Part shown: in pieces, positions 25,139 through 45,939 of the stretch
Layout: each line of letters begins with the position of its first letter
Position numbering within the stretch: position 1 is the stretch's first letter
Assembly (NCBI RefSeq): GCF_044324785.1
Contig: NZ_CP172127.1
Length of the DNA: 64,000 bases
DNA from: Escherichia coli
GTDB taxonomy: Bacteria; Pseudomonadota; Gammaproteobacteria; Enterobacterales; Enterobacteriaceae
Strand: one strand, 5' to 3'
Position numbers and translations under genes: made by a program
The notes under the pieces: model-generated
Told to the model about the DNA's origin: nothing
What the model saw: the letters and a program-made list of their open reading frames with translations, nothing else
The model's database searches: none

Positions 25139-25227
25139 GCTTAAGATGTCAAAAACCCGCTATCCGTTAAAAAGCAATGCTCAACTAAGATCAGTGACAT
25201 TGCGCTAAAAAGCGAATTTTTAGAATT

Positions 25228-25303
25228 TGGCTCCTCTGACTGGACTCGAACCAGTGACATACGGATTAACAGTCCGCCGTTCTACCGACTGAACTACAGA
25301 GGA
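25228..25303 (-). tRNA. asnT: tRNA-Asn (GUU)
   Basis: 76-nt exact tRNA-Asn sequence on reverse strand; symbol by synteny with mtfA/yeeJ. Confidence 0.93.
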
Positions 25304-25403
25304 ATCGTGTGAACGGGGCGCATATTACTTAGCGGTACCTTGTCTGTCAACACTAAATTTCATAAGCCATTTCAATTGGTTAATTAATCTGCAAAGTTGT
25401 TAA

Positions 25404-26201
25404 TTAATGAACATTCGTCGCCGAAAACGAGTCTGTATCATTAGCGTGATGCAGTCTCTGCAAAGGATCTTGTTGATAAAATTGGCAGAAACGTTGCCAC
25501 AATGAAGGGAAACGAGGAGCAAAAAGTTCTGGGGCGCTAAAGAAATATTCAGAAAGTACGGCAAAACACTCAGCAGGATCACTGGCAGCATAAGCATCGA
25601 TGCTCGCCGCATTCTCGCCAACTAATTCGATTTCTTCCTGAATGTTGTTCATTGCAGCATGAAGATCGTGTTCCCAGCCAGCAACCTCACGCAACGGAAT
25701 AAAGGGAACTCCGCTGGCGCGATCGCCGTTACGGGTGTCCAGCTTATGAGCGACTTCATGAATAATCAGGTTAAAACCAGAAGCATCAAAAGAATCTTGT
25801 ATATCCAACCAGTTCAAAACGATAGGCCCTTGCTGCCAGCTCTGACCTGACTGAACAATACGTTGGTTATGCACCAGACCGATATCGTCTTCCCATTCGT
25901 CATCGACCACAAATGGCGCAGGATAAATTAAGACTTCATGAAAACCATCCAGCCATTCCAGTCCTAACTCCAGAACGGGCAGGCAAAATAGAAGTGCTAT
26001 CCGGCAGCTTCTTAATGAATCCAGTTCAAAGCCCTGTAAAGGAACAAGCCGCTTTTGCTGTAAAAAACGTTCGGCAAGAGTGACTAATTTGCTTTGTTCC
26101 TGTTCCGTCAGACACGTTAAAAGGGGGATCGATAGTGCTTCCTGCCAGGGAAGGGCAGTTTGATGTGCTGATTCTTGTACTTTCCAGGGCCACTTAATCA
26201 T
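25404..26201 (-). CDS. mtfA: Mlc titration factor A (MtfA, zinc-dependent aminopeptidase-like)
   Basis: 265 aa from [23 protein letters not shown]; HEXXH (HEVAH) motif. Confidence 0.9.
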
Positions 26202-26294
26202 CGTTTTGCTCGCAAACTCGTCACTTGAACAAAATTGCACGGACAGGGACTGTTAAAATGCCAAATTTCCTGGCATCATGGCAACCATCTGAAC

Positions 26295-26384
26295 GGAGAG
26301 ATGCCGGAGCGGCTGAACGGACCGGTCTCGAAAACCGGAGTAGGGGCAACTCTACCGGGGGTTCAAATCCCCCTCTCTCCGCCA
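26295..26384 (+). tRNA. serU: tRNA-Ser (CGA)
   Basis: 90-nt sequence with long variable arm, anticodon loop CUCGAAA, ends GCCA; prophage integrase lies immediately 3'. Confidence 0.9.
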
Positions 26385-26469
26385 CTTTATCAATGACTTA
26401 CGTCACTCACTTTTCACCGTCGATCCCCCTGTTAGAACGGACTTAGAATATTCACTTAGAATTAGACCG

Positions 26470-27498
26470 TCACGGGTTTCTGCTCAGAACTGTGACATCC
26501 AGCACCGGAATATCCAGAGTCGGAGTTACTGCGGGTTTGCGATCATACGTCAGCACTTGCGCCTCTGTTTTGTGACCAGAGAACAACTGCTTTTCTTTAC
26601 TGCTTCCGTCGTAGTCTGAGATCCCCTTCGCTTTTAAATCGTGAAACGTTCCCGTAATCGGGTAGCCCAGCTTTTCACTTGCCGCCGCCCTGGCTTTACG
26701 CCAGATATCGTTAAATCCGGTATAGCTGTATTGCCCGCCATATTTGTTACAGACCACGAAATGTTGTCCTCCCAACGATTTCGCCTGCTCAAGTGCGAAC
26801 GTCAGTCGCTCTGAATACTGTTTGATCTGCTTTTTGCCAGTCTTACCCTGTTGGATAAACAACCCCTTACTCATTACCTGATCCCACGTCAGCTTTCGTA
26901 TATCGCCGATCCGCGTGGCGCACAGATAGGCGATCTCCATCGCGCACTGTAAAACGGGAGATGCCTCCTGATAAATTGCGATATATTCCTCGTCCGTGAA
27001 ATAGTAGTCGCGGGGCTTGAGGGAAAATTTACTGACGCCCTGGCATGGATTCCCTTTTACGTATCCGCGTTCGTATCCCCAGCGGAATACTCGCGACATA
27101 CTGGCTTTTTCATGGTTCGCCTGTGTTTTGCTTTTCAGCCCCCGCTTGTCCATATACAGCCGCACGTGAGCAGGTTTTATGTTGTCGGCTTTCATTTTCC
27201 CGAACGCGGCGAGTAATTTCTTCTGGTGCTGCAGATAATCCTTTTGTGTACGCTGACCGAGTTCCAGATAGTAGGTGCTGTTGAGAAATTTGTTCCAGAG
27301 TTTACTGAACGTCATGACATCAATAGCATCATTCAGGATCTCTTCGTATTTCACCCATACCTGAGCAATTGACAGATCATTAATTTTACCCAGCGTAATA
27401 CACTCTCGGGGCGTTGGTTTGAAATAATAGCTGTATTTGTTTTTATAAACGCGGGGTGGCAGCTTATTATCTTCCGCGTTTTTTCGTGTTCTGCTCAT
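26470..27498 (-). CDS. prophage tyrosine integrase
   Basis: 342 aa; adjacent to tRNA-Ser 3' end, transcribed toward it; catalytic-domain pattern (ATRIGDIRKLTW..., HDLKAKG...Y). Confidence 0.9.
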   Translation of the reverse strand: MSRTRKNAEDNKLPPRVYKNKYSYYFKPTPRECITLGKINDLSIAQVWVKYEEILNDAIDVMTFSKLWNKFLNSTYYLELGQRTQKDYLQHQKKLLAAFGKMKADNIKPAHVRLYMDKRGLKSKTQANHEKASMSRVFRWGYERGYVKGNPCQGVSKFSLKPRDYYFTDEEYIAIYQEASPVLQCAMEIAYLCATRIGDIRKLTWDQVMSKGLFIQQGKTGKKQIKQYSERLTFALEQAKSLGGQHFVVCNKYGGQYSYTGFNDIWRKARAAASEKLGYPITGTFHDLKAKGISDYDGSSKEKQLFSGHKTEAQVLTYDRKPAVTPTLDIPVLDVTVLSRNP

Positions 27499-27713
27499 CA
27501 GATTGCATCAAAATTAGGTTGTTCTTCTTCGGCTATCTGCGCGGGTCTGGCTCCGGACAGCGCGGCGTTTACATGCGTCCACGTGACGCGAGGTCGCCCG
27601 TCGCGGCGTTTTACATAAGAGATCCCGGCACGGGTCAGGGCACCGCATTGTTTTGACGGGAACTGGTAACCGGTCAGTTCAACCAGTTCCTGGTCTGTTA
27701 GCAGGTCGTTCAT
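27498..27713 (-). CDS. excisionase-like protein
   Basis: 71-aa ORF, stop overlapping int start; small basic protein in canonical xis position. Confidence 0.6.
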   Translation of the reverse strand: MNDLLTDQELVELTGYQFPSKQCGALTRAGISYVKRRDGRPRVTWTHVNAALSGARPAQIAEEEQPNFDAI

Positions 27714-27922
27714 GGTCTTTCCTCATAATGCGGTAAATCAGGTCATCTGCCGCCTTGCAGGCACGGGCAATATCAGACTCGGTCAAAGTCTGTTTCCTGA
27801 CGCTGGCCGAGAGTCGGCCAATTTTGATATCAAATGCGGAGAGCAGAGTTGCTCCCGGTTGCCATCGCAGCATTGTGATCCTCCGGTTACTGGTGAATCG
27901 CAATGCTAGCGATGGTGAGTTT

Positions 27923-28105
27923 TTATTTCTGATTAGGCGTAATCAGTTCTGGTGGGGGGAATGCCGATTTCTCCCGCGTGACCTTAATGTTTTCTGGCAG
28001 GTGTAGCCCAAGTTCGCAGCGGCTCCGTGCTTCAATAATGCCATTGGTACCATCGGCAAGTACCAGGTGAACCGCGTCACCACGCTTTAATGTGAGTTTA
28101 AGCAT
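27923..28105 (-). CDS. hypothetical phage protein
   Basis: 60-aa ORF translationally coupled to upstream gene. Confidence 0.4.
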   Translation of the reverse strand: MLKLTLKRGDAVHLVLADGTNGIIEARSRCELGLHLPENIKVTREKSAFPPPELITPNQK

Positions 28106-28674
28106 TAGCGTACCCTCAGCGAACGTTCGCCGTGTTCCAGATGTGCGCCTGGTACCGGGTTTAATAATTCGGCTGGTGGTGTTTCTCCACGCGCCAGTAT
28201 TTCGGCGGCAACCGCCTCCGCAGATTCAATCACTTCTTTAATGGCTCGTTTGTTTGGTGTAATAACCGTTTCTACATCAACAAGTGACACGCCTTCATAC
28301 TCATCCGGGATCTTATCTTTGCTATCGATAATTACCCGGATAGCCCCCTGTGCATCAGTAAATGTGTTTTTTGCGGTTTTCAGTTTATCCAGGCCAGCAG
28401 CTTGCAGGCAGGCGAGCATATGCTTCCGAATTGCTTTTTCCTTGCCTTCAAAGGACGTCTTACGGGTAGCCAGGCGAGACATTTCTTCAGCGCAGGTACT
28501 GGCATTGCCCTGTAAATTACGGCAGATGACCATCATGGCGTCCAGTTTGTCTCCCAGTTCTCCTTCCATACCTTCAAGCGTGTCGGCGATCATCTCTGGC
28601 GTCAGTTCGTCGGAGGTTTCCAGCAGGTCAATCAGGCTGGCGTATTCTTTTGCAATAGCGATAGCGGTGCTCAT
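28105..28674 (-). CDS. phage protein of recombination module (possibly Gp157-like)
   Basis: 189-aa acidic protein, overlaps neighbours at both ends; family assignment from memory only. Confidence 0.45.
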   Translation of the reverse strand: MSTAIAIAKEYASLIDLLETSDELTPEMIADTLEGMEGELGDKLDAMMVICRNLQGNASTCAEEMSRLATRKTSFEGKEKAIRKHMLACLQAAGLDKLKTAKNTFTDAQGAIRVIIDSKDKIPDEYEGVSLVDVETVITPNKRAIKEVIESAEAVAAEILARGETPPAELLNPVPGAHLEHGERSLRVR

Positions 28675-30884
28675 GCTGTTTGCTCCTGTGCGGCGGCGAG
28701 AGCGGCGAGGCGTTCGGTTTTGATTTCATTCAAACGGCGCAGGCGCGAACCAAGATAAGTTGAATACTCCTTATCACCTTTGGATTCTGCGGCCTTGCGG
28801 TGAACTTCTACTTCCCGCGCAATAAGGCCATAGACTTTATTAACTTCATTGGGGGTTACGGCTGCAGCCAGTGTTTTGGCAACACCTGAGAGTCGTTCAT
28901 CCAGTTCTTCACGCAGTCGGGTAGCATCCTCTACTTTCTCGCTTGCCTTCTTAATACCGTATTCTGTATTCAGCTCGGCGGTGTAGGCACTATCGTTATG
29001 CATATCCATATAAACATCTGCCGCAAATCCCAGATGAGATAGTGCTTTGACGGTGGCATCAGTAAGAGACTTTTTGGAGGCCTCTTTTTCCATTACCAGT
29101 GCCCCTTTGTTATTTTTTGATATGTAATCCGTGTGGCCATATGACGGAATAAATCCTTTCACTCCGTTCCAGATGTACCAGAGATCTATCCGGATGGTGT
29201 GTACTGACAGGCAGAACAGGGAACCGTCAGCATCCCTGACAGGTTTTTGTCCAATAATTTTCCCTGTCTGATCCTGTATAGGTTCAAGTAATGGCACACC
29301 GCGATCCACTCGCTCCTCCTTGATTTCAACTCCCCAACCAATGCCTTCCATTCCCAGCACTTCAGTCGCACGCATCAAAATATATTGTGCGCGTATGGAG
29401 TGCAGTCCTGCACCGTAATCATTATGTGTGACATACGCAGGATCGGTCCGCTGAACGCGATTCCAGATAGCCAAATTTGCTTTGCTCTGGTCATCATTCA
29501 TTGCTGACAGATAATGCTCCATGCGAATTGATGCAGTTTTTTCCTCGGCATGGATCCGCTCAACCAGCGCGTCAACGTTTTGCACCAGGTCTTTTACCTG
29601 CTCGCTAAGTTTTTCTTGTGGAGGAGTCTCTTCTGTCGGGGTAATAGCTGCAGGTTCCCTCTGTGATACTGCGTTATTTTCAGGTACGTCATACACATGG
29701 CGAGGCGTGACAAACTGCTCACGCAACTGCTGCAAACTACGTTCTCCAGCATTTGCTGCTTCGCTTTTTTCGCCCTGATTTGAGGGTGTTTCTGACATCA
29801 TTCCATCAATTGAGAATCGCCCGCCGCCGTGGTTGGTGACTTTTACATCATCCTTTGGTGCTGTTTCCTTTGGCTTCTCTTCAACAGCATTTGCATCACG
29901 CTGCCCGTTAGCTTGCAGCCAGTTGTCGATGTGACTGCGCAGGGATTGCGGGAAGTGGTACGTGTCTTTTGCGGGGGCGCTCTGAATAACACCGAATACT
30001 GATGCGCGGTCATAGGCAAGGATCTGATCCGTTGTGCGCAAGGCCATTGACCAGCGTTTAAAATCCTCCCGATCCTGGCTGATTATTTCGTCTGCCGCTT
30101 TCAGGACGCTGGGGGTGATTTTTTCCGGGCCAACGGGTAACAGGGCGCAGGCAATTTCACGATCCAGTGTGGCGTGAGTCTGTTTGTAAGGACGTGCGGA
30201 CGGTTTTACCTCCGGCAGCATTTCATCGCGTTTACCGGGATTCTCTACCCATTTTTTTATAAATTTGGAGATAGTCCAACTGGTCGGGTTTTGTTCCTGG
30301 GTATCGCAACTTGCCAAAATTGCATGTATCAGATTATTCAATCCAGCAATATGCATGTACTCGATGGGCTTACACGCCACCATGGCATCAAGAACGATGC
30401 GGTTAAACGCGTCAACCTCATCCTCACTGTCAGTATCACTGTTGTCGAGCATCTCCAGGTATTCACGCGTCTGCGCAAGCAATTCACTGTCGACTTCGTT
30501 GGCGTCGTGGCTGAACAGCAGAACGGCGGCGAATCGTTCACGAGCCGGCAGTTTCATCAGGTCGTTAACCTGTGCGATATCTGCTGAACCGCTATCTACA
30601 ACGGGGGTGTTAACTACCCATTTTTCGCCATCAAAACTGTGTTCTGTGGCGAACGTCTCATCAAACTCACCAACGCCTGGGCGCGGTTGGCCCGGGGCAT
30701 CTTCCCAGATTTTAGGTTTGAAATAGTTGTCGCCGTGGTCAGGGTAGGCTTCCCACAATTTGCCGATGATGATGTTCTCGGCAACTTTTTTGTTAGGGGC
30801 GTCGATGGCGATGGCCAGCGCCGGGATCGCGCCGTTTTTGAGCGCGCCTTTTTTCGCTTCTAACAAGCCGTTAAAAATGGTCAT
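28671..30884 (-). CDS. large phage recombination protein: C-terminal Rad52/Sak-like single-strand annealing domain fused to ~470-aa N-terminal region of unknown function
   Basis: C-terminal KEASKKSLTDATVKALSHLGFAADVY and GWGVEIKEE... resemble Rad52/22-family annealing proteins; GAGGAAAG RBS. Confidence 0.55.
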   Translation of the reverse strand: MTIFNGLLEAKKGALKNGAIPALAIAIDAPNKKVAENIIIGKLWEAYPDHGDNYFKPKIWEDAPGQPRPGVGEFDETFATEHSFDGEKWVVNTPVVDSGSADIAQVNDLMKLPARERFAAVLLFSHDANEVDSELLAQTREYLEMLDNSDTDSEDEVDAFNRIVLDAMVACKPIEYMHIAGLNNLIHAILASCDTQEQNPTSWTISKFIKKWVENPGKRDEMLPEVKPSARPYKQTHATLDREIACALLPVGPEKITPSVLKAADEIISQDREDFKRWSMALRTTDQILAYDRASVFGVIQSAPAKDTYHFPQSLRSHIDNWLQANGQRDANAVEEKPKETAPKDDVKVTNHGGGRFSIDGMMSETPSNQGEKSEAANAGERSLQQLREQFVTPRHVYDVPENNAVSQREPAAITPTEETPPQEKLSEQVKDLVQNVDALVERIHAEEKTASIRMEHYLSAMNDDQSKANLAIWNRVQRTDPAYVTHNDYGAGLHSIRAQYILMRATEVLGMEGIGWGVEIKEERVDRGVPLLEPIQDQTGKIIGQKPVRDADGSLFCLSVHTIRIDLWYIWNGVKGFIPSYGHTDYISKNNKGALVMEKEASKKSLTDATVKALSHLGFAADVYMDMHNDSAYTAELNTEYGIKKASEKVEDATRLREELDERLSGVAKTLAAAVTPNEVNKVYGLIAREVEVHRKAAESKGDKEYSTYLGSRLRRLNEIKTERLAALAAAQEQTA

Positions 30885-30914
30885 TGGTCTTTCCTCATTA
30901 CAGGTCAGTGGTCT

Positions 30915-31235
30915 TTAGTAGGGGATTTCATCAGTATCTGGCGTGTATTCGATGCAAAGTAACTGCTGGATTTTGTCATCGATAGCAGCAATACGCTGTT
31001 GGGCGTCGGCGACTGTTTTCTGTTTTTGTTCACGCAGCTGCTCGACCTGTAAACCGATGATGTCGATTGGCTGGGGCTGGTTGACGGTAATTTCAATTTC
31101 GCGGCTTTCCAGAAGGATGTACCTGTCTGGAAAATTTTTTGACATATCAACCGTCGCAATAAGCAGCTTTTCATGGCTGAAAGTTGAAGTTGCATAATGA
31201 ATAAAGAGTGTTACTGGGATGGTGCGCGCTTCCAT
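30915..31235 (-). CDS. hypothetical phage early protein
   Basis: 106-aa ORF with AAGGAG RBS. Confidence 0.5.
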   Translation of the reverse strand: MEARTIPVTLFIHYATSTFSHEKLLIATVDMSKNFPDRYILLESREIEITVNQPQPIDIIGLQVEQLREQKQKTVADAQQRIAAIDDKIQQLLCIEYTPDTDEIPY

Positions 31236-32078
31236 AGCGACTCCTTGGTGATGTATACTCGGGACCGATCAGCGAATATTGATCAGCTTCCATAGCGTCA
31301 GTGTCGTTGGTCTTTCCTCATCACAAGTTTGGTCACTTGTGATAAATCCGAATGGTTTGGTCGCCGTTCGGGGTAACTGGCCCGCCTTGTGCGGGTCTTT
31401 TGCTATCTAAAGGGTGCCGGTTACGTTTCCGGCGTCGTTATGTTTCCATCACGACCGTACGGGGCTGGTCTTTCCTGTTTTGAGCTGGTCAGGCTCATGG
31501 TCAACGCTGGTCAGGCGTGGTACTTCCTCCGGTCTTTCCCTGGTGTCACGCTGCGGGTTTGGCCTCTCCTGTTGGGGACTCAGGCACAGCGATAAAACCT
31601 GGCTGTGTGAAAAAATGGCCCATCGTGCGGACTGGGCAAAGACTAAACACAGCAAATTGATGATGGGCGCCCGGAATCGAACCGGGTAACGGGCAGGGAG
31701 TTCCCGTTAAACACCTGTTCACCACAACCGGGAGCGCACTCCGCCATTTCAAAATTTAACGACAAAGCTCAAAGTTGAGTCGATGAAGTGCGCTCTCGTG
31801 TTGTAGCCAGGACTCTTCCCTGGTGGTCACACCGTATCGCCTTGATGGTGAATCAATCGCTCATACCTGGCTGTGGCTTGCACATTCCGGCTACCTGCTA
31901 TGGAGACAACGCGTTAAGGCTCCGCTTCCATCCAGACCGCTTCGACACATGTGCCATATGCCGGTGAAGTCTTTCCCTCTGTCATCGTGCTGTCGGCGAC
32001 CCGAAGAATGCTCCGGGATGTTTATCCACGCCCGGTCGTGCTACCTTTTATGTCCTCACAACAAAAAAGGATATTTTC

Positions 32079-32297
32079 ATGTCAGAGATAGCCGAACTTA
32101 AAGAAGAATTAGCTAAAGTTAGAGCTGAATTACATACCCACAAGGCATTGCTCTTAACCATTCTTCGTGATCTTCCTCCTCAAAAAGATAAATTTCTCTT
32201 GAGAATTGGAGCGTCCGTTAACGATCTGAACCGCCCAGATATTCAGGAGTTAGGCACACTCATTCAATTTTTGCGGTTGCTAAATAACCGCAAATAG
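32079..32297 (+). CDS. hypothetical small protein (AT-rich gene convergent with the gene downstream of the repressor)
   Basis: 72-aa ORF with AAGGAT RBS; helical heptad-like N-terminus. Confidence 0.35.
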   Translation: MSEIAELKEELAKVRAELHTHKALLLTILRDLPPQKDKFLLRIGASVNDLNRPDIQELGTLIQFLRLLNNRK

Positions 32298-32634
32298 CAT
32301 CAACATTAAGCCGGGTGCCGTCATGTTTATTGGCGGCATCAGTAGCTATTTGTAATATTTTTCTGACGTCATCAATACTTGTTCCCCGGGTTGTTTCGCA
32401 CAGACTTTTGTCAATTGCGCAGAAAACTTCAAAAACTCCCGTAGCCAATTTTTCCCGTTCATCTGCTTTCAGAGTGATGACCGGAGAATATAGCGTAGTA
32501 AAGGCTTCTCTGATTTCCTGCGCCATAGCTACTGGTGATTTTGTTTCGCAAAGCTGGGTGCTGAACTGCATCCGGTCACTCAGTAGATGAGCGGCGATCA
32601 CCTGAATTTGTTGCGGTAAAGATTTAAATTCCAT
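32260..32634 (-). CDS. hypothetical protein encoded directly downstream of the repressor (rex-like position)
   Basis: 124 aa from MEFKSLPQQ with AGGAG RBS. Confidence 0.45.
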   Translation of the reverse strand: MEFKSLPQQIQVIAAHLLSDRMQFSTQLCETKSPVAMAQEIREAFTTLYSPVITLKADEREKLATGVFEVFCAIDKSLCETTRGTSIDDVRKILQIATDAANKHDGTRLNVDAICGYLATAKIE

Positions 32635-32737
32635 CGTTTGGTACTCCTGACACACTGGTCTGGGTTGCCCTTATCGCCGGGTAGCGGAACGTGTTTCTGA
32701 ACAACTGCCGCTGGGTAAGCGTTGTTGATGAAAGCGA

Positions 32738-32762
32738 CTTTACAATTTGTATTTGTAATGGT
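32738..32762. promoter_or_regulatory. operator-like site sharing the ATTTGTAAT half-site of the cI/cro operators
   Basis: TTACAATTTGTATTTGTAATG repeats the 9-mer found twice in the 33333..33371 operator region. Confidence 0.4.
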
Positions 32763-32884
32763 CAATGTATTTTTAAAAAATAATTTGTAGTTAGGGGCAA
32801 AAAAATATTCACTGTGTAAAGGTGTTTTTGTGTTAGGGGGAAAGTTGCATGCCAGCAGCGGCTGGCCTGGAAATTTGAACTGAA

Positions 32885-33313
32885 CTATTTTGTCTGGTTT
32901 TTGGCTTCAAGTAGTTCTTTTAGCAGTAGATCGAAGTGCTCTCTTTTTTCTTTTAGCTCATTGATTAGTTTATTTTTTTCGCTCTCAGGCAGTCCTCTGA
33001 ATAGTTGCAGTAGAGCCTGTTCTTGTGGGGTTAGTTCTTGATTGTAATTACCGGGGTGTAGCGTGGATTCATCCAAATATTCTCCTTCATTCATGAAGAA
33101 AAAATGAACAGGGTATCCGGTCACTTTTGCTAGCTTGTCTAATTTATCTTTTCTTGGCGTTACCCCATTACACCATGCCTGAACTGATTGAGCTGTAACC
33201 CCAATATGGCGAGCTAACTCAGATTGAGACCAGCCTAAGTCTTTTAGAATCCGTTGTAGTCGGCTAGCAAAAGCCATGTTTTTCGTTTTTGTGTTCATAC
33301 CGTAAGGATACAA
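32885..33313 (-). CDS. prophage repressor (XRE-family HTH, cI-like, no S24 peptidase domain); start uncertain (TTG 33313, ATG 33298 or 33277)
   Basis: HTH motif GWSQSELARHIGVTAQSVQAWCNG; divergent from Cro-like gene. Confidence 0.75.
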   Translation of the reverse strand: MYPYGMNTKTKNMAFASRLQRILKDLGWSQSELARHIGVTAQSVQAWCNGVTPRKDKLDKLAKVTGYPVHFFFMNEGEYLDESTLHPGNYNQELTPQEQALLQLFRGLPESEKNKLINELKEKREHFDLLLKELLEAKNQTK

Positions 33314-33396
33314 GGTTTAATTGTAGGGAGCATTGCAAATATAATTTGTAATTACAGTTATGATTTGTAATGATGGCGCGGACACAAGGAGTCCAT
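33314..33396. promoter_or_regulatory. divergent promoter/operator region with two inverted-repeat operators
   Basis: ATTGCAAAT-ATA-ATTTGTAAT and ATTACAGTT-ATG-ATTTGTAAT inverted repeats between divergent regulator genes. Confidence 0.6.
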
Positions 33397-33627
33397 ATGG
33401 ATAAACAACTGCAAGACAAAATTCTTTCCGTAATGAGTCAATCAGAGTTAGGTCGGCGATTAGGGAAAAAACCACAAACTGTGAGCCTCTGGTTCAAAGG
33501 ACGGGTTCCCGGTGAAGAGGTTTTGCGCACATCTGAAGCTCTTGAATGGCGCGTGACCCCTCATGATCTTAGACCGGATCTTTACCCAAACCCAGATGAC
33601 AGCTTGCCTAAAACGGAAGCAGCTTAA
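33397..33627 (+). CDS. Cro/YdaS-like HTH regulator
   Basis: 76 aa from MDKQLQDKIL with AAGGAG RBS; HTH-like SQSELGRRLGKKPQTVSLW. Confidence 0.7.
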   Translation: MDKQLQDKILSVMSQSELGRRLGKKPQTVSLWFKGRVPGEEVLRTSEALEWRVTPHDLRPDLYPNPDDSLPKTEAA

Positions 33628-33685
33628 CTGTTGGTGAGCCCCAAATCTGATTAAGCGTAATCAATTTTTAGCGACAGGAGACGCT

Positions 33686-34162
33686 ATGGAAAACCCAGAG
33701 GAATTACAAAAAGAGATTTTGACCTGGGCGGCAAGGGCAGGGCAGGAACTCGTCACGATTGAAATCTGCCGGGCCTGGTTCAGTCAGGGACGCAATGATG
33801 AGTTGAGACTACATGAATTTGAGGACGCGGACGGCAACGTGGACTGGAGAGCCATCAACAACAATCGGCAGAAAATCTTTCGCTGGTTACGTGGCGAGAC
33901 AACGGCGGCGCGCCGAAAAACTCAGGTGCTGGCCAGTGTGATGAAAGCCGTGCTACCCGCAGAACGGCGTGCGCGTCTGGAGTCGCCGGGCGATCCTGTT
34001 TTGCTGGCAACGCTGGCGGCAAAAGAAGGGGTGGAAGCGATTAACGCTGTACATCTCCACTTCGCGCCAGAGATAACTATTCAGGAAATTGACGAAGCAA
34101 TAGCGGCGCTGGTAGCGACGCGAGGGGCAGTGATAAGCACTGCGCAAGGCCATCATGCATGA
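33686..34162 (+). CDS. YdaT-like protein (CII functional analogue family)
   Basis: 158 aa; NNRQKIFRWLRGETTAARRKTQVL...LPAERRARL resembles Rac YdaT. Confidence 0.65.
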   Translation: MENPEELQKEILTWAARAGQELVTIEICRAWFSQGRNDELRLHEFEDADGNVDWRAINNNRQKIFRWLRGETTAARRKTQVLASVMKAVLPAERRARLESPGDPVLLATLAAKEGVEAINAVHLHFAPEITIQEIDEAIAALVATRGAVISTAQGHHA

Positions 34163-38444: not shown

Positions 38445-39137
38445 TTGGCGTCGCTGGTGGTGATGAAAAAAACACTAAGTGAGGCCACTGCGATGACAAT
38501 CCAAATATCTGCGGAATCCCTTTCTCCGCTACATCATAACCAACTTCCCGTCATCACTACTGAATTGCTTGCCAGTTTGTATGGCACGGAAGTAAATGGT
38601 ATCCAGCAAAACTTCAAGCGCAACATCGCCAGATTTGTCGTAGGAAAGCATTTTTTTAAGCTGGAAGGTAATGAATTACGCGACTTCAAAAACAGACTGA
38701 CAGATAGTCAGTCAGTTGCTAAACATACCCGATCCCTCATTCTCTGGACAGAACGCGGCGCAGCTCGCCATGCCAAAATGCTGGAAACAGAACAGGCCTG
38801 GGAAGTTTTCGAAAAGCTGGAAGATTGTTATTTTAGCCAGCGTCCAGAGAGGCGGAGTACAACTACCGATGACCGTACTCCCTTACGTGATGCCGTTAAT
38901 ATGCTGGTCGGTAAGAAAGGCATGATGTATCCCGATGCCTACACCATGATTCATCAACGCTTCGCCGTCTCTCACATAGAACAACTGTCACAGACGCAAA
39001 TGTTAGAGGCGATTGAATACATCCACTGCCTGCTACTCGATGAAAATCAACCAACCATTCCAGATCACCACTATCAAAAATGGAAAAGTGACCAGAATGC
39101 GCCATGTTGCCAAAGGCGAACATCTGATGACCTTTGA
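38445..39137 (+). CDS. ORF6N-domain antirepressor / Rha-like regulatory protein; start uncertain, 3' region possibly frameshifted into ORF 39013..39270
   Basis: N-terminal pattern LPVITTELLASLYGTEVNGIQQNFKRNIARFVVGKHFFKL resembles ORF6N antirepressor domain. Confidence 0.55.
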   Translation: MASLVVMKKTLSEATAMTIQISAESLSPLHHNQLPVITTELLASLYGTEVNGIQQNFKRNIARFVVGKHFFKLEGNELRDFKNRLTDSQSVAKHTRSLILWTERGAARHAKMLETEQAWEVFEKLEDCYFSQRPERRSTTTDDRTPLRDAVNMLVGKKGMMYPDAYTMIHQRFAVSHIEQLSQTQMLEAIEYIHCLLLDENQPTIPDHHYQKWKSDQNAPCCQRRTSDDL

Positions 39138-44002: not shown

Positions 44003-44569
44003 AGCTCCTCCAGTTACTGCATTACGATTATTGGTCGAAATATAGACAACATGTTCCGTACCACATTCCTGTAAAAGTGCAAATTCTGCACTTCTGGTAC
44101 GATATTAACTGTTAGTAGTAAAGTCTTCCAGATAAATCACTTTAAAATCGTGTGAATTGCTTGCTTTTTACGCTGCATTGTGGATGGCTCAATGTTTCCA
44201 GTAAAAACATACATGATAATCATGACATTAGTGGTTTTTTAGGCGTCCATCTGTTTCTTAAAAAAATGGATGCCACAAGCGCCCGGATGAGAACAGGAAG
44301 GGAAGGCTATTACATGTGTGATTTATTACATCTGTAAAAAAATACAGATCTAACCTGATCTTTTCATTGAAGTTTTTCTTGGTCCTGGATAGGATCTGGA
44401 GGTTGCGAAGATTTTAGAGTCGCATCAAAGGGAAAGCCCTGACAGCGCCAACTGTCAGGGCCATACAAAAACATCGGTTAATGCTTTCGTTGAGATCTCG
44501 GTTTGGGAGATTACCTCAACCGGGATCCCGTGTAAAGCATTCATTGCCGAAAATGATATAGGTCAATGA

Positions 44570-45608: not shown

Positions 45609-45759
45609 TGACCATAAACGGTTTAATCCCCTATAAAACCGTTTAATAAAATTCACGACGTGAATATAATTGTTCATTATTCCCTCATTGTATCTGGCGT
45701 TATGACAAATGCCATAAAATACTGTATAAATGTACAGGCGGTGGCGTTAGGGGGAAGAC

Positions 45760-45939
45760 ATGAATATTCAAGAATCTATAGGCGAACTACCGGAAACATG
45801 CCGGGCTGTTATCAAGCGTAAGGACGGACACATCGTTGGTGTGCGTGTTCTGACTGATGATGAACGGATTGCCAGCCTGATGGCGTTTCTCGAGTTGGCA
45901 GAAATAGCTGGATATACTATTACACCCCCTGACGCGTAA
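45760..45939 (+). CDS. hypothetical small protein (59 aa, below track threshold)
   Basis: manually translated MNIQESIGELPETCRAVIKRKDGHIVGVRVLTDDERIASLMAFLELAEIAGYTITPPDA; GGGGAAG RBS. Confidence 0.35.
   Translation: MNIQESIGELPETCRAVIKRKDGHIVGVRVLTDDERIASLMAFLELAEIAGYTITPPDA

Follow-up and report, generated by a model that had tools for sequence, protein, structure and literature searches.

The genes downstream of the repressor in this Escherichia coli prophage are likely to represent the left arm of a lambdoid immunity region of the DicA/PaaR2/RacR type, together with an optional two-gene cassette of which the first gene (gene A, 124 aa) is predicted to be off and the second, convergent gene (gene B, 72 aa) is probably on in the lysogen. 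This reading is drawn from comparison of the window (the whole analysed stretch of 64,000 nucleotides) with related prophages; the features discussed are listed in Table 1. A first-pass annotation of this DNA had seen gene A in a rex-like position, a placement that had to be given up, as a predicted operator (OL1) and a predicted early-left promoter (PL) stand between the repressor and gene A.

Table 1. Features of the left arm and of the A/B cassette (positions in the window).
Feature	Position	Strand	Description
KilS-like sRNA element	31608..31745	-	on the PL strand, beyond the cassette; terminator hairpin and U-run
Candidate weak B promoter	32021..32047	+	TTTATC, 15-nt spacer, TGcTACCTT (extended -10); no repressor operator
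Gene B	32079..32297	+	72 aa; AAGGA 8 nt upstream; convergent with A
Stem-loop, possible end of B transcript	32314..32340	+	10-bp stem, 17 nt past the B stop, then U-rich
Gene A	32260..32634	-	124 aa; ATG start, AGGAG 9 nt upstream; first gene after PL
Left-operon 5' leader	32635..32730	-	conserved; core motif GTTCCGCTACCCGGCGATAAGGG at 32689..32668
PL-like early-left promoter	32737..32765	-	TTGACC (32765..32760), 17-nt spacer, TAAAGT (32742..32737)
Predicted operator OL1	32739..32759	.	TTTACAATT-TGT-ATTTGTAAT, 16/18; spans the PL spacer and part of the -10 hexamer
Weak operator-like site OL2	32771..32791	.	13/18; upstream of the PL -35 hexamer
Hairpin after repressor stop codon	32848..32869	-	ViennaRNA -11.1 kcal/mol; no U-run
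Repressor	32885..33298	-	short DicA/Gifsy type, HTH_3, no S24 peptidase domain
Two overlapping right operators	33332..33352; 33351..33371	.	17/18 and 16/18; palindrome scan

The operator consensus is a 21-bp palindrome, ATTRCAAAT-N3-ATTTGYAAT, of which the half-site noticed in the first-pass annotation is the right arm. This 9-mer, ATTTGTAAT, occurs five times in exact form in the 64 kb, four of the five copies lying inside 32348..33371. A palindrome scan of the same 64 kb returned only three sites with at least 16 of 18 matching positions, namely OL1 and the two right operators, where block-shuffled sequence yields 0.1 sites at a level of at least 15/18. The right operators (33332..33371) cover candidate PR promoters on the plus strand upstream of the cro-like gene, with PWM scores of 12.0 (TTAATT-17-TATAAT) and 9.2; on this scale, scores of at least 9 arise about once per kb per strand. 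The earlier suggestion of repressor-linked control through a third site agrees well with this, since OL1 is, as predicted from its sequence, a full 21-bp operator that shares its specificity with the pair at cI/cro. The weaker OL2 is kept in L001, a relative of the same immunity. An exact half-site inside gene A (32348..32356) was considered as a fourth operator and rejected, since it stands without a partner arm and has the identical sequence in the heteroimmune relative L002. We give hardly any credence to the idea that OL1 is a chance AT-rich match devoid of a regulatory role. Its surroundings are AT-rich and one-mismatch matches are frequent in the window (33 observed vs 20 expected); however, its score stands against the shuffled control given above, it is placed exactly on PL, and it is kept in prophages of the same immunity and swapped along with the repressor in heteroimmune relatives.

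With a PWM score of 13.1, PL is the only sigma-70-like site within 30800..33700 (2.9 kb). It lies on the same strand as the repressor gene, points away from it into gene A with a predicted transcript start at about 32730, and aligns with the dicBp promoter of Qin (TTGACC-17-TAATCT). The leader that follows is 92% identical to that of the Salmonella locus L012, compared with 73% for the adjacent coding sequence, and its core motif is also found in the dicB/ydfA leader of Qin, the ydaG leader of Rac, Salmonella loci and, by eye, phage Evi. The leader was also considered as a structured RNA, a candidate that was rejected (unremarkable fold of the whole leader, z=0.11). A small conserved hairpin-like motif persists in it despite this overall fold. 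The repressor comprises 137 aa if read from its first ATG and 130 aa if read from 33277, the start used in the NCBI annotation of relatives. It aligns over its full length with DicA of K-12 (32% identity, E=1e-17), reaches 72.6 bits against the NCBIfam DicA model, which is under the cut-off of 101 bits, and is placed by PHROG among transcriptional regulators.

Three heteroimmune relatives match the backbone up to the predicted start at about 32730 and then carry their own repressor, promoter and operators. Backbone identity is 97% for L002 and 80% for L012; homology with these stops at 32730, just downstream of OL1, and the repressor, cro and spacer beyond this point are different ones. Between repressor and first gene, the spacer of each of the seven heteroimmune loci contains a promoter with a score of 8-14.5, and in most of these loci 8-mers shared with their own cI/cro spacer adjoin or cover that promoter. 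An outward promoter, an overlapping operator, co-exchange with the repressor and downstream recombination and excision genes are found together, and operator and promoter are predicted to be the left operator of the prophage on its early-left promoter (OL/PL unit). Further along the PL strand, the KilS-like element aligns with kilS of K-12 Rac (b4833), including a core TTGCTGTGT(G/T)TAGTC common to kilS and rprA; it has a terminator-like site at its end (31632..31618) and obtains 37.4 bits with the Rfam RprA model, below the gathering threshold of 70. It forms the other edge of what we refer to as the sieB slot. A 737-aa gene in the window is an exonuclease (PHROG 2489), and the next genes annotated in collinear relatives are Gp157, DUF4224 and integrase.

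Genes of the rex type have their place between the repressor gene and OL/PL and share the repressor transcript. Because the operator and a strong outward promoter separate the repressor from gene A, gene A is most likely the first gene of the early-left operon, and the repressor is predicted to keep it silent in the lysogen. Very unlikely in our view is the reading in which gene A (with gene B) forms a rex-like, lysogen-expressed exclusion module that is co-expressed with the repressor and fine-tuned by the third site. It could draw on the accessory nature of the cassette, on its being richer in AT than the backbone, and on the hairpin after the repressor, which with no U-run would not be a canonical terminator and could possibly permit some read-through of the repressor transcript into gene A in the lysogen. 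Against it stands the promoter under its operator between the two genes, together with the promoters and locus-specific operator words found at the same place in the seven heteroimmune relatives, in five of which a hairpin followed by a T-run lies at the equivalent place ahead of the promoter (sequences compared by eye). Moreover, similarity of A or B to exclusion, defence or toxin-antitoxin families was found neither in PADLOC nor in Pfam or NCBIfam. Genuine rex-position genes in this phage group sit upstream of PL, in phage Evi as a RelB-family antitoxin and a weakly RelE-like ORF, and likewise in CP-933P (PMC8630535). A type II toxin-antitoxin pair was rejected as well, A and B being convergent rather than co-directional and without a match to such a family.

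That the two reading frames are real genes, as had been proposed, is borne out by comparison: both are intact in the 80%-identical Salmonella copy (L012), their dN/dS values are of the coding type, and the NCBI annotation pipeline calls both in E. coli TUM13936. Gene B had further been described as AT-rich and convergent. Convergence is clear, with an overlap of 38 bp covering the last 12 codons of gene A, whereas the AT-richness is only modest (GC content 39.7% for B and 43.2% for A vs 48.8% for the window). The cassette is missing from L015, a representative of the most frequent class of matches in the 472 E. coli genomes of this immunity, is replaced in L001 by another convergent pair (74-aa/77-aa), and is present in TUM13936 with a different immunity region. 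As judged by this distribution, A and B are a rare, optional accessory cassette in an ordinary lambdoid layout.

The gene A product is acidic (pI 5.4) and predicted to be all-helical. Its N-domain (residues 1-52) is a member of an uncharacterised enterobacterial prophage family with the motif LP..Q.IAA..L ... AF..L, in which L6, P7, Q11, I13, A14, A15, L18, A44 and F45 are invariant among 25 sequences. PHROG matches (9419, 8e-14; 1363, 1.5e-8; 2151, 5e-8) are confined to the N-terminal 50-65 residues. The C-domain (residues 53-124) is found only in A itself, in near-identical E. coli copies and in the Salmonella L012 homologue. In the comparison with L012, dN/dS is 0.42 for the gene, 0.22 for the N-domain and 0.59 for the C-domain. 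Homologues are listed as 'hypothetical proteins' of 54-131 aa in Salmonella and E. coli. A HMMER search of 1.84 billion representatives returned only small N-domain homologues and two repeat-protein matches that were judged spurious, and sequence and profile searches of Pfam, NCBIfam, PADLOC and PDB gave no match. The initial impression was that neither product of the cassette can be annotated by eye, and indeed neither matches a family of known function. In tblastn against 50,697 phage records no match was obtained for gene A or for the L001 homologue of gene B; the A-family protein P0006 had phage Evi as its sole match among phage records. The place of the A family directly after PL is not fixed, because in Evi its gene is the fourth after the repressor. 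AlphaFold2 models of gene A from alignments of 5 and 25 rows both reached a pLDDT of 50, which is low confidence. An N-like antiterminator was considered and rejected for gene A (2 R/K in the first 25 residues, pI 5.4, no arginine-rich motif).

The gene B product is basic (pI 9.3) and carries no hydrophobic segment: no transmembrane segment was predicted, the maximum Kyte-Doolittle value over 19 residues being 0.70, compared with 2.19 for SieB of Rac, to which it displays no similarity either (BLASTP E=4.2). Sequence and profile searches of Pfam, NCBIfam, PADLOC and PDB gave no informative match. Gene B matches PHROG 20080 weakly (E=1.9e-4, residues 1-65), and the 77-aa ORF of L001 matches the same family with 6e-37; by BLASTP the two share only their first 25 residues. 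The candidate B promoter has a PWM score of 4.8, which by itself is background level; by eye its place and sequence agree with those of TTTATC-16-TGgTATACT (9.4) ahead of the convergent gene of the Salmonella loci L007 and L009, and over the 130 bp that precede B the identity to L012 is 91.5%. The stem-loop past the B stop lies within the 3' part of gene A and folds with -20.5 kcal/mol (ViennaRNA, 73-nt stretch); its arms are kept in L012, which is weak evidence, as the same bases encode part of A. No YdaT-box was found upstream of B. Antirepressors of the Gifsy type sit after the replication genes (PMC3121763). Such a LexA-controlled antirepressor was considered for B or another gene of the locus and rejected, there being no LexA box near B; CTGT-N8-ACAG sites occur only at 44332 and 45722.

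It might be argued that gene B is not a protein gene at all, and that the plus-strand signal reflects either antisense RNA or an ORF that lies opposite the PL transcript by chance. The weakness of its own promoter, the want of an annotated function and the fact that the homologous 77-aa ORF is unannotated in the L001 record speak for this, which we nevertheless consider highly improbable: the ORF keeps its exact length at 80% DNA identity, with a dN/dS of 0.21 against L012 and an excess of substitutions at third positions (11/8/25 by codon position), the other five frames carry stop codons, the ribosome-binding site is good, and PHROG 20080, the family matched by the L001 homologue at the value given above, is well established among phage proteins. 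Taking gene B as a protein gene, it may be expressed in the lysogen, and it is plausible from the analysis that the idea of a lysogen-expressed accessory gene, put forward for the region before, applies only to gene B and not to gene A.

Based on this dataset, we hypothesize the following course of events. The PL transcript would run from the leader into gene A, continue in antisense direction through gene B and the KilS-like sRNA, and then reach a 106-aa gene, the RecE-like exonuclease, the Gp157 family protein, the DUF4224 protein and the integrase. In the lysogen, repressor bound to OL1 would block RNA polymerase and keep gene A off. The repressor has no self-cleavage domain, and induction should therefore come from an antirepressor, upon which PL would fire and gene A would be made as the first early-left product. 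Gene B, in turn, would probably be expressed at a low constitutive level, lysogen included, because its own weak promoter is conserved and free of an operator. As A and B converge and overlap, strong transcription from PL should silence B, and transcription of B should dampen leaky expression of A. In the lysogen, the expected state would then be 'B on, A off', which induction would invert.

With low confidence, gene B may be thought of as a lysogen-expressed accessory or exclusion factor paired with an early-lytic gene A that counteracts B or acts on the host. In the stricter form of this thought, A and B are a functional pair, with B as exclusion or toxic factor of the lysogen, A as its early-lytic antagonist, and the overlap ensuring mutually exclusive expression. 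We regard this as unlikely, albeit with several points to its credit. A and B come and go as a unit, and convergent, 3'-overlapping pairs recur after PL with different gene families: besides A/B, these are the 74-aa/77-aa pair of L001, a 66-aa/59-aa pair in Salmonella and a 135-aa/77-aa pair in phage Evi. Genes of the PHROG 20080 type are paired with differing PL-side genes (B with A; 77-aa with 74-aa in L001), the 74-aa gene of L001 aligns with the C-domain of gene A in hhalign (E=0.0026, probability 12%; nothing in BLASTP), and Rac carries sieB in the same slot, flanked by ydaF and kilS just as gene B is flanked by gene A and the KilS-like element. In P22, Esc reportedly lets the phage escape its own SieB exclusion. 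On the other hand, no homology of either product to a defence or toxin family was found, B and SieB are unrelated, the former not being a membrane protein, co-occurrence could result from one insertion event, and the hhalign link is weak. A generalization, namely that the convergent pairs after PL are an unrecognised class of two-gene accessory switch with one partner for the lysogen and one for induction, set to either/or by convergent transcription, appears distinctly doubtful. If true, the sieB slot could, for instance, supply a new exclusion factor as the lysogen partner, and the induced partner could be its antagonist.

Apart from such pairing, the preferred reading of the region (an OL/PL unit followed by an optional cassette) corrects the expected expression state of gene A, which is predicted to be early-lytic rather than lysogen-expressed and is therefore unpromising where lysogenic conversion or exclusion is concerned; for a host phenotype encoded by the prophage, gene B is the better choice. 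A simple rule may follow for the large group of enterobacterial prophages with repressors of the DicA, PaaR2 or Gifsy type: the PL leader motif would divide the repressor operon, to which genes ahead of it would be assigned, from the repressed left operon, which would comprise those behind it. Between the PL leader and the KilS-like sRNA there seems to be a hotspot for the swapping of small accessory cassettes, and this slot may be mined for new functions.

The architecture is that of an ordinary lambdoid phage. In lambda (NC_001416), the repressor operon (cI-rexA-rexB) is followed by OL/PL, N and then the convergent accessory gene sieB, and the window likewise displays repressor, OL/PL, first early-left gene and convergent accessory gene. 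It differs from lambda in having no rex genes, in a repressor without S24 cleavage domain, and in gene A, which bears no similarity to N. The Rac prophage (racR-ydaG-ydaF-sieB-kilS-kilR-recE) shares with the window the succession of repressor, leader motif and small first genes, and continues in the same order with a convergent gene overlapping the last of these, the KilS sRNA and exonuclease genes. The genes themselves are different: RacR belongs to another repressor family, gene A is unrelated to YdaG (no match in hhalign), and gene B is neither related to SieB nor endowed with a membrane segment.

In CP-933P of O157:H7 immunity works by the same logic, with regulators that are cI-like, YdaS/Cro-like and YdaT/CII-like (PMC8630535). 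Its paaA2-parE2 toxin-antitoxin genes occupy the rex-like position in the repressor operon, upstream of PL (PMC8630535); the window has no such genes there. PL933P, the promoter downstream of the paaR2 operon, contains the repeats that are also present in the cI/cro spacer, and has been assayed with PaaR2 (PMC8630535). Finally, the dicA-dicBp-ydfA...dicF-dicB region of Qin differs from the window in operator sequence, in its first genes (ydfA/B/C in place of gene A), in an annotation without a convergent gene at this place, and in its sRNA, which is DicF rather than KilS-like. Both have a short non-cleavable repressor, a divergent cro-like gene, an operator-overlapped promoter that follows the repressor gene immediately and on its strand, and a homologous leader after this promoter with GTTCCGCTACCC..GCG.TAAGGG. 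In Qin, DicA represses dicBp 22-fold, and the antirepressor Rem relieves this repression (PMC10448788). Gene A holds the position that is taken by N in lambda, ydfA in Qin and ydaG in Rac.

The first-pass annotation described a 124-aa gene (gene A) 3′ of the repressor on the same strand and a convergent 72-aa gene (gene B) overlapping its 3′ end; both are confirmed by comparison with Salmonella L012, a copy of the module with about 80% DNA identity that served as reference for the coding test. L012 retains both frames, with one in-frame 7-codon insertion in A. Against it, dN/dS is 0.42 for A overall (0.22 for residues 1–52, 0.59 for residues 53–112) and 0.21 for B, whose substitutions by codon position are 11/8/25; stop codons are present in all five other frames across B. 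Both genes are annotated by the NCBI pipeline in E. coli TUM13936 (L002), and both proteins are on record from about 200 E. coli contigs, with adjacent locus tags. Kept frames, dN/dS and these records thus identify A and B, at sequence level, as genuine genes.

Both lie in a lambdoid prophage. The segment from 25221 to 28956 is 96.6% identical to E. coli JNE151685 (L001), where it is annotated as mtfA, tRNA-Ser and integrase, in that order. Over its full length, including the C-terminal LPESE helix, the repressor shares 32% identity with K-12 DicA; with the NCBIfam DicA model it scores 72.6 bits, below the cut-off of 101 bits. It has no S24 peptidase domain. A good LexA box, TACTGTATAAATGTACAG, is found at 45722..45737, 23 nt 5′ of a 59-aa gene at 45760..45939 (+) that belongs to PHROG 340, a family of "unknown function"; a second CTGT-N8-ACAG site is located at 44332..44347. 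Because the repressor lacks a cleavage domain, the 59-aa gene is a candidate SOS-controlled antirepressor, by analogy with the Gifsy GfoA/GftA type (PMC3121763). Its protein displays no BLASTP similarity to Qin Rem. A 224-aa protein at 38463..39137 (+) matches PHROG 4792 ("anti-repressor") at 9e-113 and is, from this match, a second candidate for inactivating the repressor. YdaT recognizes the repeat TTGATT-N6-AATCAA (PMC9986795). Near-matches occur between cro and the ydaT-like gene (CTGATTAAGCGTAATCAA, 33647..33664) and toward the integrase-proximal (left) prophage end (CTGATTAGGCGTAATCAG, 27929..27946), the latter recalling the CII-activated PI of lambda; across the window they are not above chance (6 observed, 4.5 expected).

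Features of the window and of related loci
Feature	Position	Strand	Remarks
tRNA-Asn	25228..25303		just left of prophage
tRNA-Ser	26295..26384		just left of prophage
KilS homologue	31608..31745	-	homology to Rac sRNA KilS (K-12 b4833)
Candidate B promoter	32021..32047		TTTATC-15-TGcTACCTT; by-eye counterpart of L007/L009 site
Gene B, 72 aa	32079..32297	+	convergent with A, 38-bp overlap
Gene A, 124 aa	32260..32634	-	AGGAG 9 nt 5′ of ATG
Predicted promoter PL	32765..32737	-	sigma-70-type, TTGACC-17-TAAAGT; consensus scan
Operator palindrome OL1	32739..32759		at least 16/18
Short HTH repressor	32885..33298	-	HTH, DicA-like
Operator palindrome	33332..33352		at least 16/18
Operator palindrome	33351..33371		at least 16/18
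cro-like gene	33397..33627	+	
YdaT/CII-like gene	33686..34162	+	
Replication genes			3′ of YdaT/CII-like gene
L001 77-aa ORF	6883..7116 (JNE151685, NZ_AP027258.1)	+ (locus orientation)	
Slot gene, Salmonella			59 aa, PHROG 17494; convergent, overlaps upstream gene's 3′ end
Slot gene, phage Evi			77 aa; convergent, overlaps upstream gene's 3′ end
Evi RelB antitoxin and RelE/StbE-like ORF	2065..2536 (L013, LR597642.1)		directly 3′ of repressor gene

A 250-bp spacer separates the repressor from gene A. The 9-mer ATTTGTAAT, with 5 exact copies in 64 kb and 4 of them inside 1 kb, is the right arm of a 21-bp palindrome, ATTRCAAAT-N3-ATTTGYAAT. A scan of the window for the whole palindrome returned three sites scoring 16/18 or better, against 0.1 sites at 15/18 or above in block shuffles that preserve composition; the third operator copy noted earlier is therefore borne out as a full palindrome, OL1. 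A weaker palindrome, at 32771..32791, reaches 13/18. The 9-mer inside gene A (32348..32356) was rejected as an operator, its partner arm being absent. Heteroimmune L002 carries it unchanged and L012 with one base altered; encoding part of the conserved KILQIA stretch of A, it reads as a coding-sequence coincidence.

The consensus scan of 30800..33700 found a single sigma-70-type site, PL, directed into gene A. Its position-weight score is 13.1 and the next best in the spacer 6.7, on a simple scale where scores of at least 9 arise about once per kb per strand. OL1 overlies the PL spacer and part of the -10 hexamer, so that bound repressor would exclude RNA polymerase. Predicted operator and promoter together point to an OL/PL arrangement and not to a rex gene. 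Repressor-linked control of A, as proposed before, is upheld in this form, with its direction reversed: A would be repressed rather than co-expressed with the repressor. The hairpin between repressor and PL has no U-run, and some read-through may occur.

Three sets of relatives independently support the OL/PL reading. Homology of the window to L002 (97% identical) and L012 (80%) extends from the exonuclease gene to 32730, the predicted transcript start, and returns after cro; the intervening repressor, cro, promoter and repeats are particular to each. Seven heteroimmune loci were compared (the window, L002, L012 and L006 to L009). In all seven, the spacer between repressor and first gene holds a promoter scoring 8–14.5, with 70–117 nt from the end of the -10 hexamer to the first gene. 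Locus-specific 8-mers shared with the respective cI/cro spacer adjoin or overlie this promoter in most loci, and a hairpin with T-run between repressor gene and promoter was seen by eye in 5/7. In alignment, promoter and leader of the window correspond to the Qin dicBp promoter, the ydfA leader and the Rac ydaG leader, with GTTCCGC(C/T)-ACCC-(G/A)GCG(A/T)TAAGGG common to the window, Qin and Rac leaders. Deletion of dicA raises dicBp activity 22-fold, and the antirepressor Rem 165-fold (PMC10448788). In CP-933P, PL933P sits 3′ of the paaR2-paaA2-parE2 operon, and its repeats are those of the cI/cro spacer (PMC8630535). The leader motif GTTCCGCTACCCGGCGATAAGGG occurs once in the window, at 32668..32689 (-). 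It is kept in L001, L002, L012 and L006 to L009, whatever the repressor or first gene, and also in the Qin dicB/ydfA leader, the Rac ydaG leader and phage Evi; it could form a 3–4 bp stem with a GGCG(A/U)UAA loop.

The rex-like position attributed to gene A was not borne out, since OL1 and PL stand between repressor and A. The true rex-like position, between repressor and PL, holds no gene in the window; the earlier placement of A is therefore wrong. CP-933P carries the paaA2-parE2 toxin-antitoxin pair there, inside the repressor operon and 5′ of PL (PMC8630535). Phage Evi has, 20 bp past its repressor gene, a gene annotated merely as hypothetical that matches the RelB antitoxin family (84 bits, cut-off 50). 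The next ORF, unannotated, displays a weak RelE/StbE-family match (21.4 bits, under the 27.9 cut-off), and a promoter-like sequence and the leader motif, read by eye, appear only after both. The two form a candidate toxin-antitoxin pair, placed upstream of PL like paaA2-parE2.

The order in K-12 Rac is racR, ydaG, ydaF, convergent sieB (overlapping ydaF by 4 nt), sRNA kilS, kilR and recE. Given the KilS homologue of the window, B takes the exact place of sieB, with the first PL genes on one side and KilS on the other. B was considered as a SieB homologue and rejected, being unrelated to SieB. Other relatives carry different small convergent genes in this slot, overlapping the 3′ end of the upstream gene, and one Salmonella locus additionally has a Phd/ParE pair nearby. 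The immunity-region query matches 472 E. coli complete genomes; among the matches listed, three classes appear, with 72%, 73% and 78% query coverage. In L015 (73% class), a same-immunity representative, 32001..32686 is absent and the PL leader is joined almost directly to a conserved non-coding stretch. In L001 (78% class), 32109..32664 is swapped for a 74-aa gene and a 77-aa convergent gene. The A/B cassette occurs in 1 of 5,426 complete genomes, beside a different immunity region. In absence, replacement and occurrence, A and B thus behave as one accessory unit.

Both products had been called unannotatable by eye. Searches of Pfam, NCBIfam, PADLOC and PDB gave no match for gene A. Its first 50–65 residues match PHROGs 9419, 1363 and 2151, all listed as "unknown function", and the searches returned 27 clusters of 35–131 aa, nearly all "hypothetical proteins" of Salmonella/E. 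coli. An alignment of 25 sequences displays a conserved core, LP..Q.IAA..L...AF..L, with highly variable tails; the 72-aa C-domain is found only in A, near-identical E. coli copies and the L012 homologue. A family member is present within the left operon at every locus examined, as first gene in the Salmonella loci, window, L002 and L012, second in L003 and fourth in Evi. The AlphaFold2 model is all-helical (pLDDT 50), too poor for a fold search. A is acidic; lacking an arginine-rich N-terminus and a hydrophobic segment, it was rejected as N-like and as a membrane protein, respectively.

B is small and basic without a membrane segment, its N-terminus helical and heptad-like by eye. It matches PHROG 20080 weakly (1.9e-4); the L001 77-aa ORF in its place matches full-length at 6e-37 and shares the first 25 residues of B. 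This ORF is absent from the RefSeq annotation and converges on the annotated 74-aa gene with a 50-bp overlap. No convincing stand-alone promoter was found 5′ of B (best score 6.3). Over the 130 bp upstream, identity to L012 is 91.5%, and the L007/L009 counterpart of the candidate promoter (TTTATC-16-TGgTATACT) scores 9.4 and is followed by a similar CACACAAC..AAGGA leader. No repressor operator is present at the candidate site. The conserved upstream region, the counterpart and the missing operator indicate that B probably has weak, repressor-independent expression.

K-12 KilS is Hfq-bound and northern-blot verified (PMC8175672). A 16-nt core, UUGCUGUGU(G/U)UAGUC, lies just 5′ of the terminators of KilS, the window element, the L007 copy and the core-genome sRNA RprA, which goes unmentioned in the KilS paper (PMC8175672). 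The terminator hairpin of the window element resembles that of rprA (GCCCA...CGAUGGGC); K-12 KilS and Salmonella L007 share another. With the Rfam RprA model the window element reaches 37.4 bits, short of the gathering threshold (70). From the shared core, the prophage sRNA might act on RprA targets. A window-specific insertion of the element contains a tRNA T-arm look-alike, GGTTCGATTCCGGG, at 31662..31680 (-), where ARAGORN finds no tRNA and Rfam tRNA-Sec gives merely 19 bits; it may be an attachment-site remnant. The surrounding ORF-poor stretch (31236..32078, about 840 bp), between B and a 106-aa gene, is read as non-coding because indels against L012 would shift the frame. Its identity to the Salmonella copy is 84–92%, compared with 73–79% for flanking genes with near-saturated synonymous sites. 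It contains about 5 G(G)TCTTTCC-like motifs (by eye) and several plus-strand hairpins with trailing T-runs (31379..31470); a segment of about 240 bp (~31420..31656) is missing from L012.

Based on this dataset, we propose with high confidence that repressor on OL1 would shut PL, and that PL would transcribe A, followed by the remaining left-operon genes, once the repressor is inactivated; an antirepressor is the probable agent, as it is for DicA and the Gifsy repressors (PMC10448788, PMC3121763). With moderate confidence, B would be transcribed from its own weak candidate promoter regardless of the repressor, its transcript would stop at a stem-loop (32314..32340) inside the 3′ part of A, and convergent transcription would render expression of A and B mutually exclusive. 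More tentatively, with low confidence, B may serve as an accessory or exclusion factor of the lysogen phase, and A may be an early factor, possibly directed against B. The KilS-like sRNA, the conserved non-coding stretch and the PL leader motif may merit more attention than the A/B finding. The A and B proteins are uncharacterised members of small prophage families, and the architecture is the textbook OL/PL unit of a well-studied prophage group.
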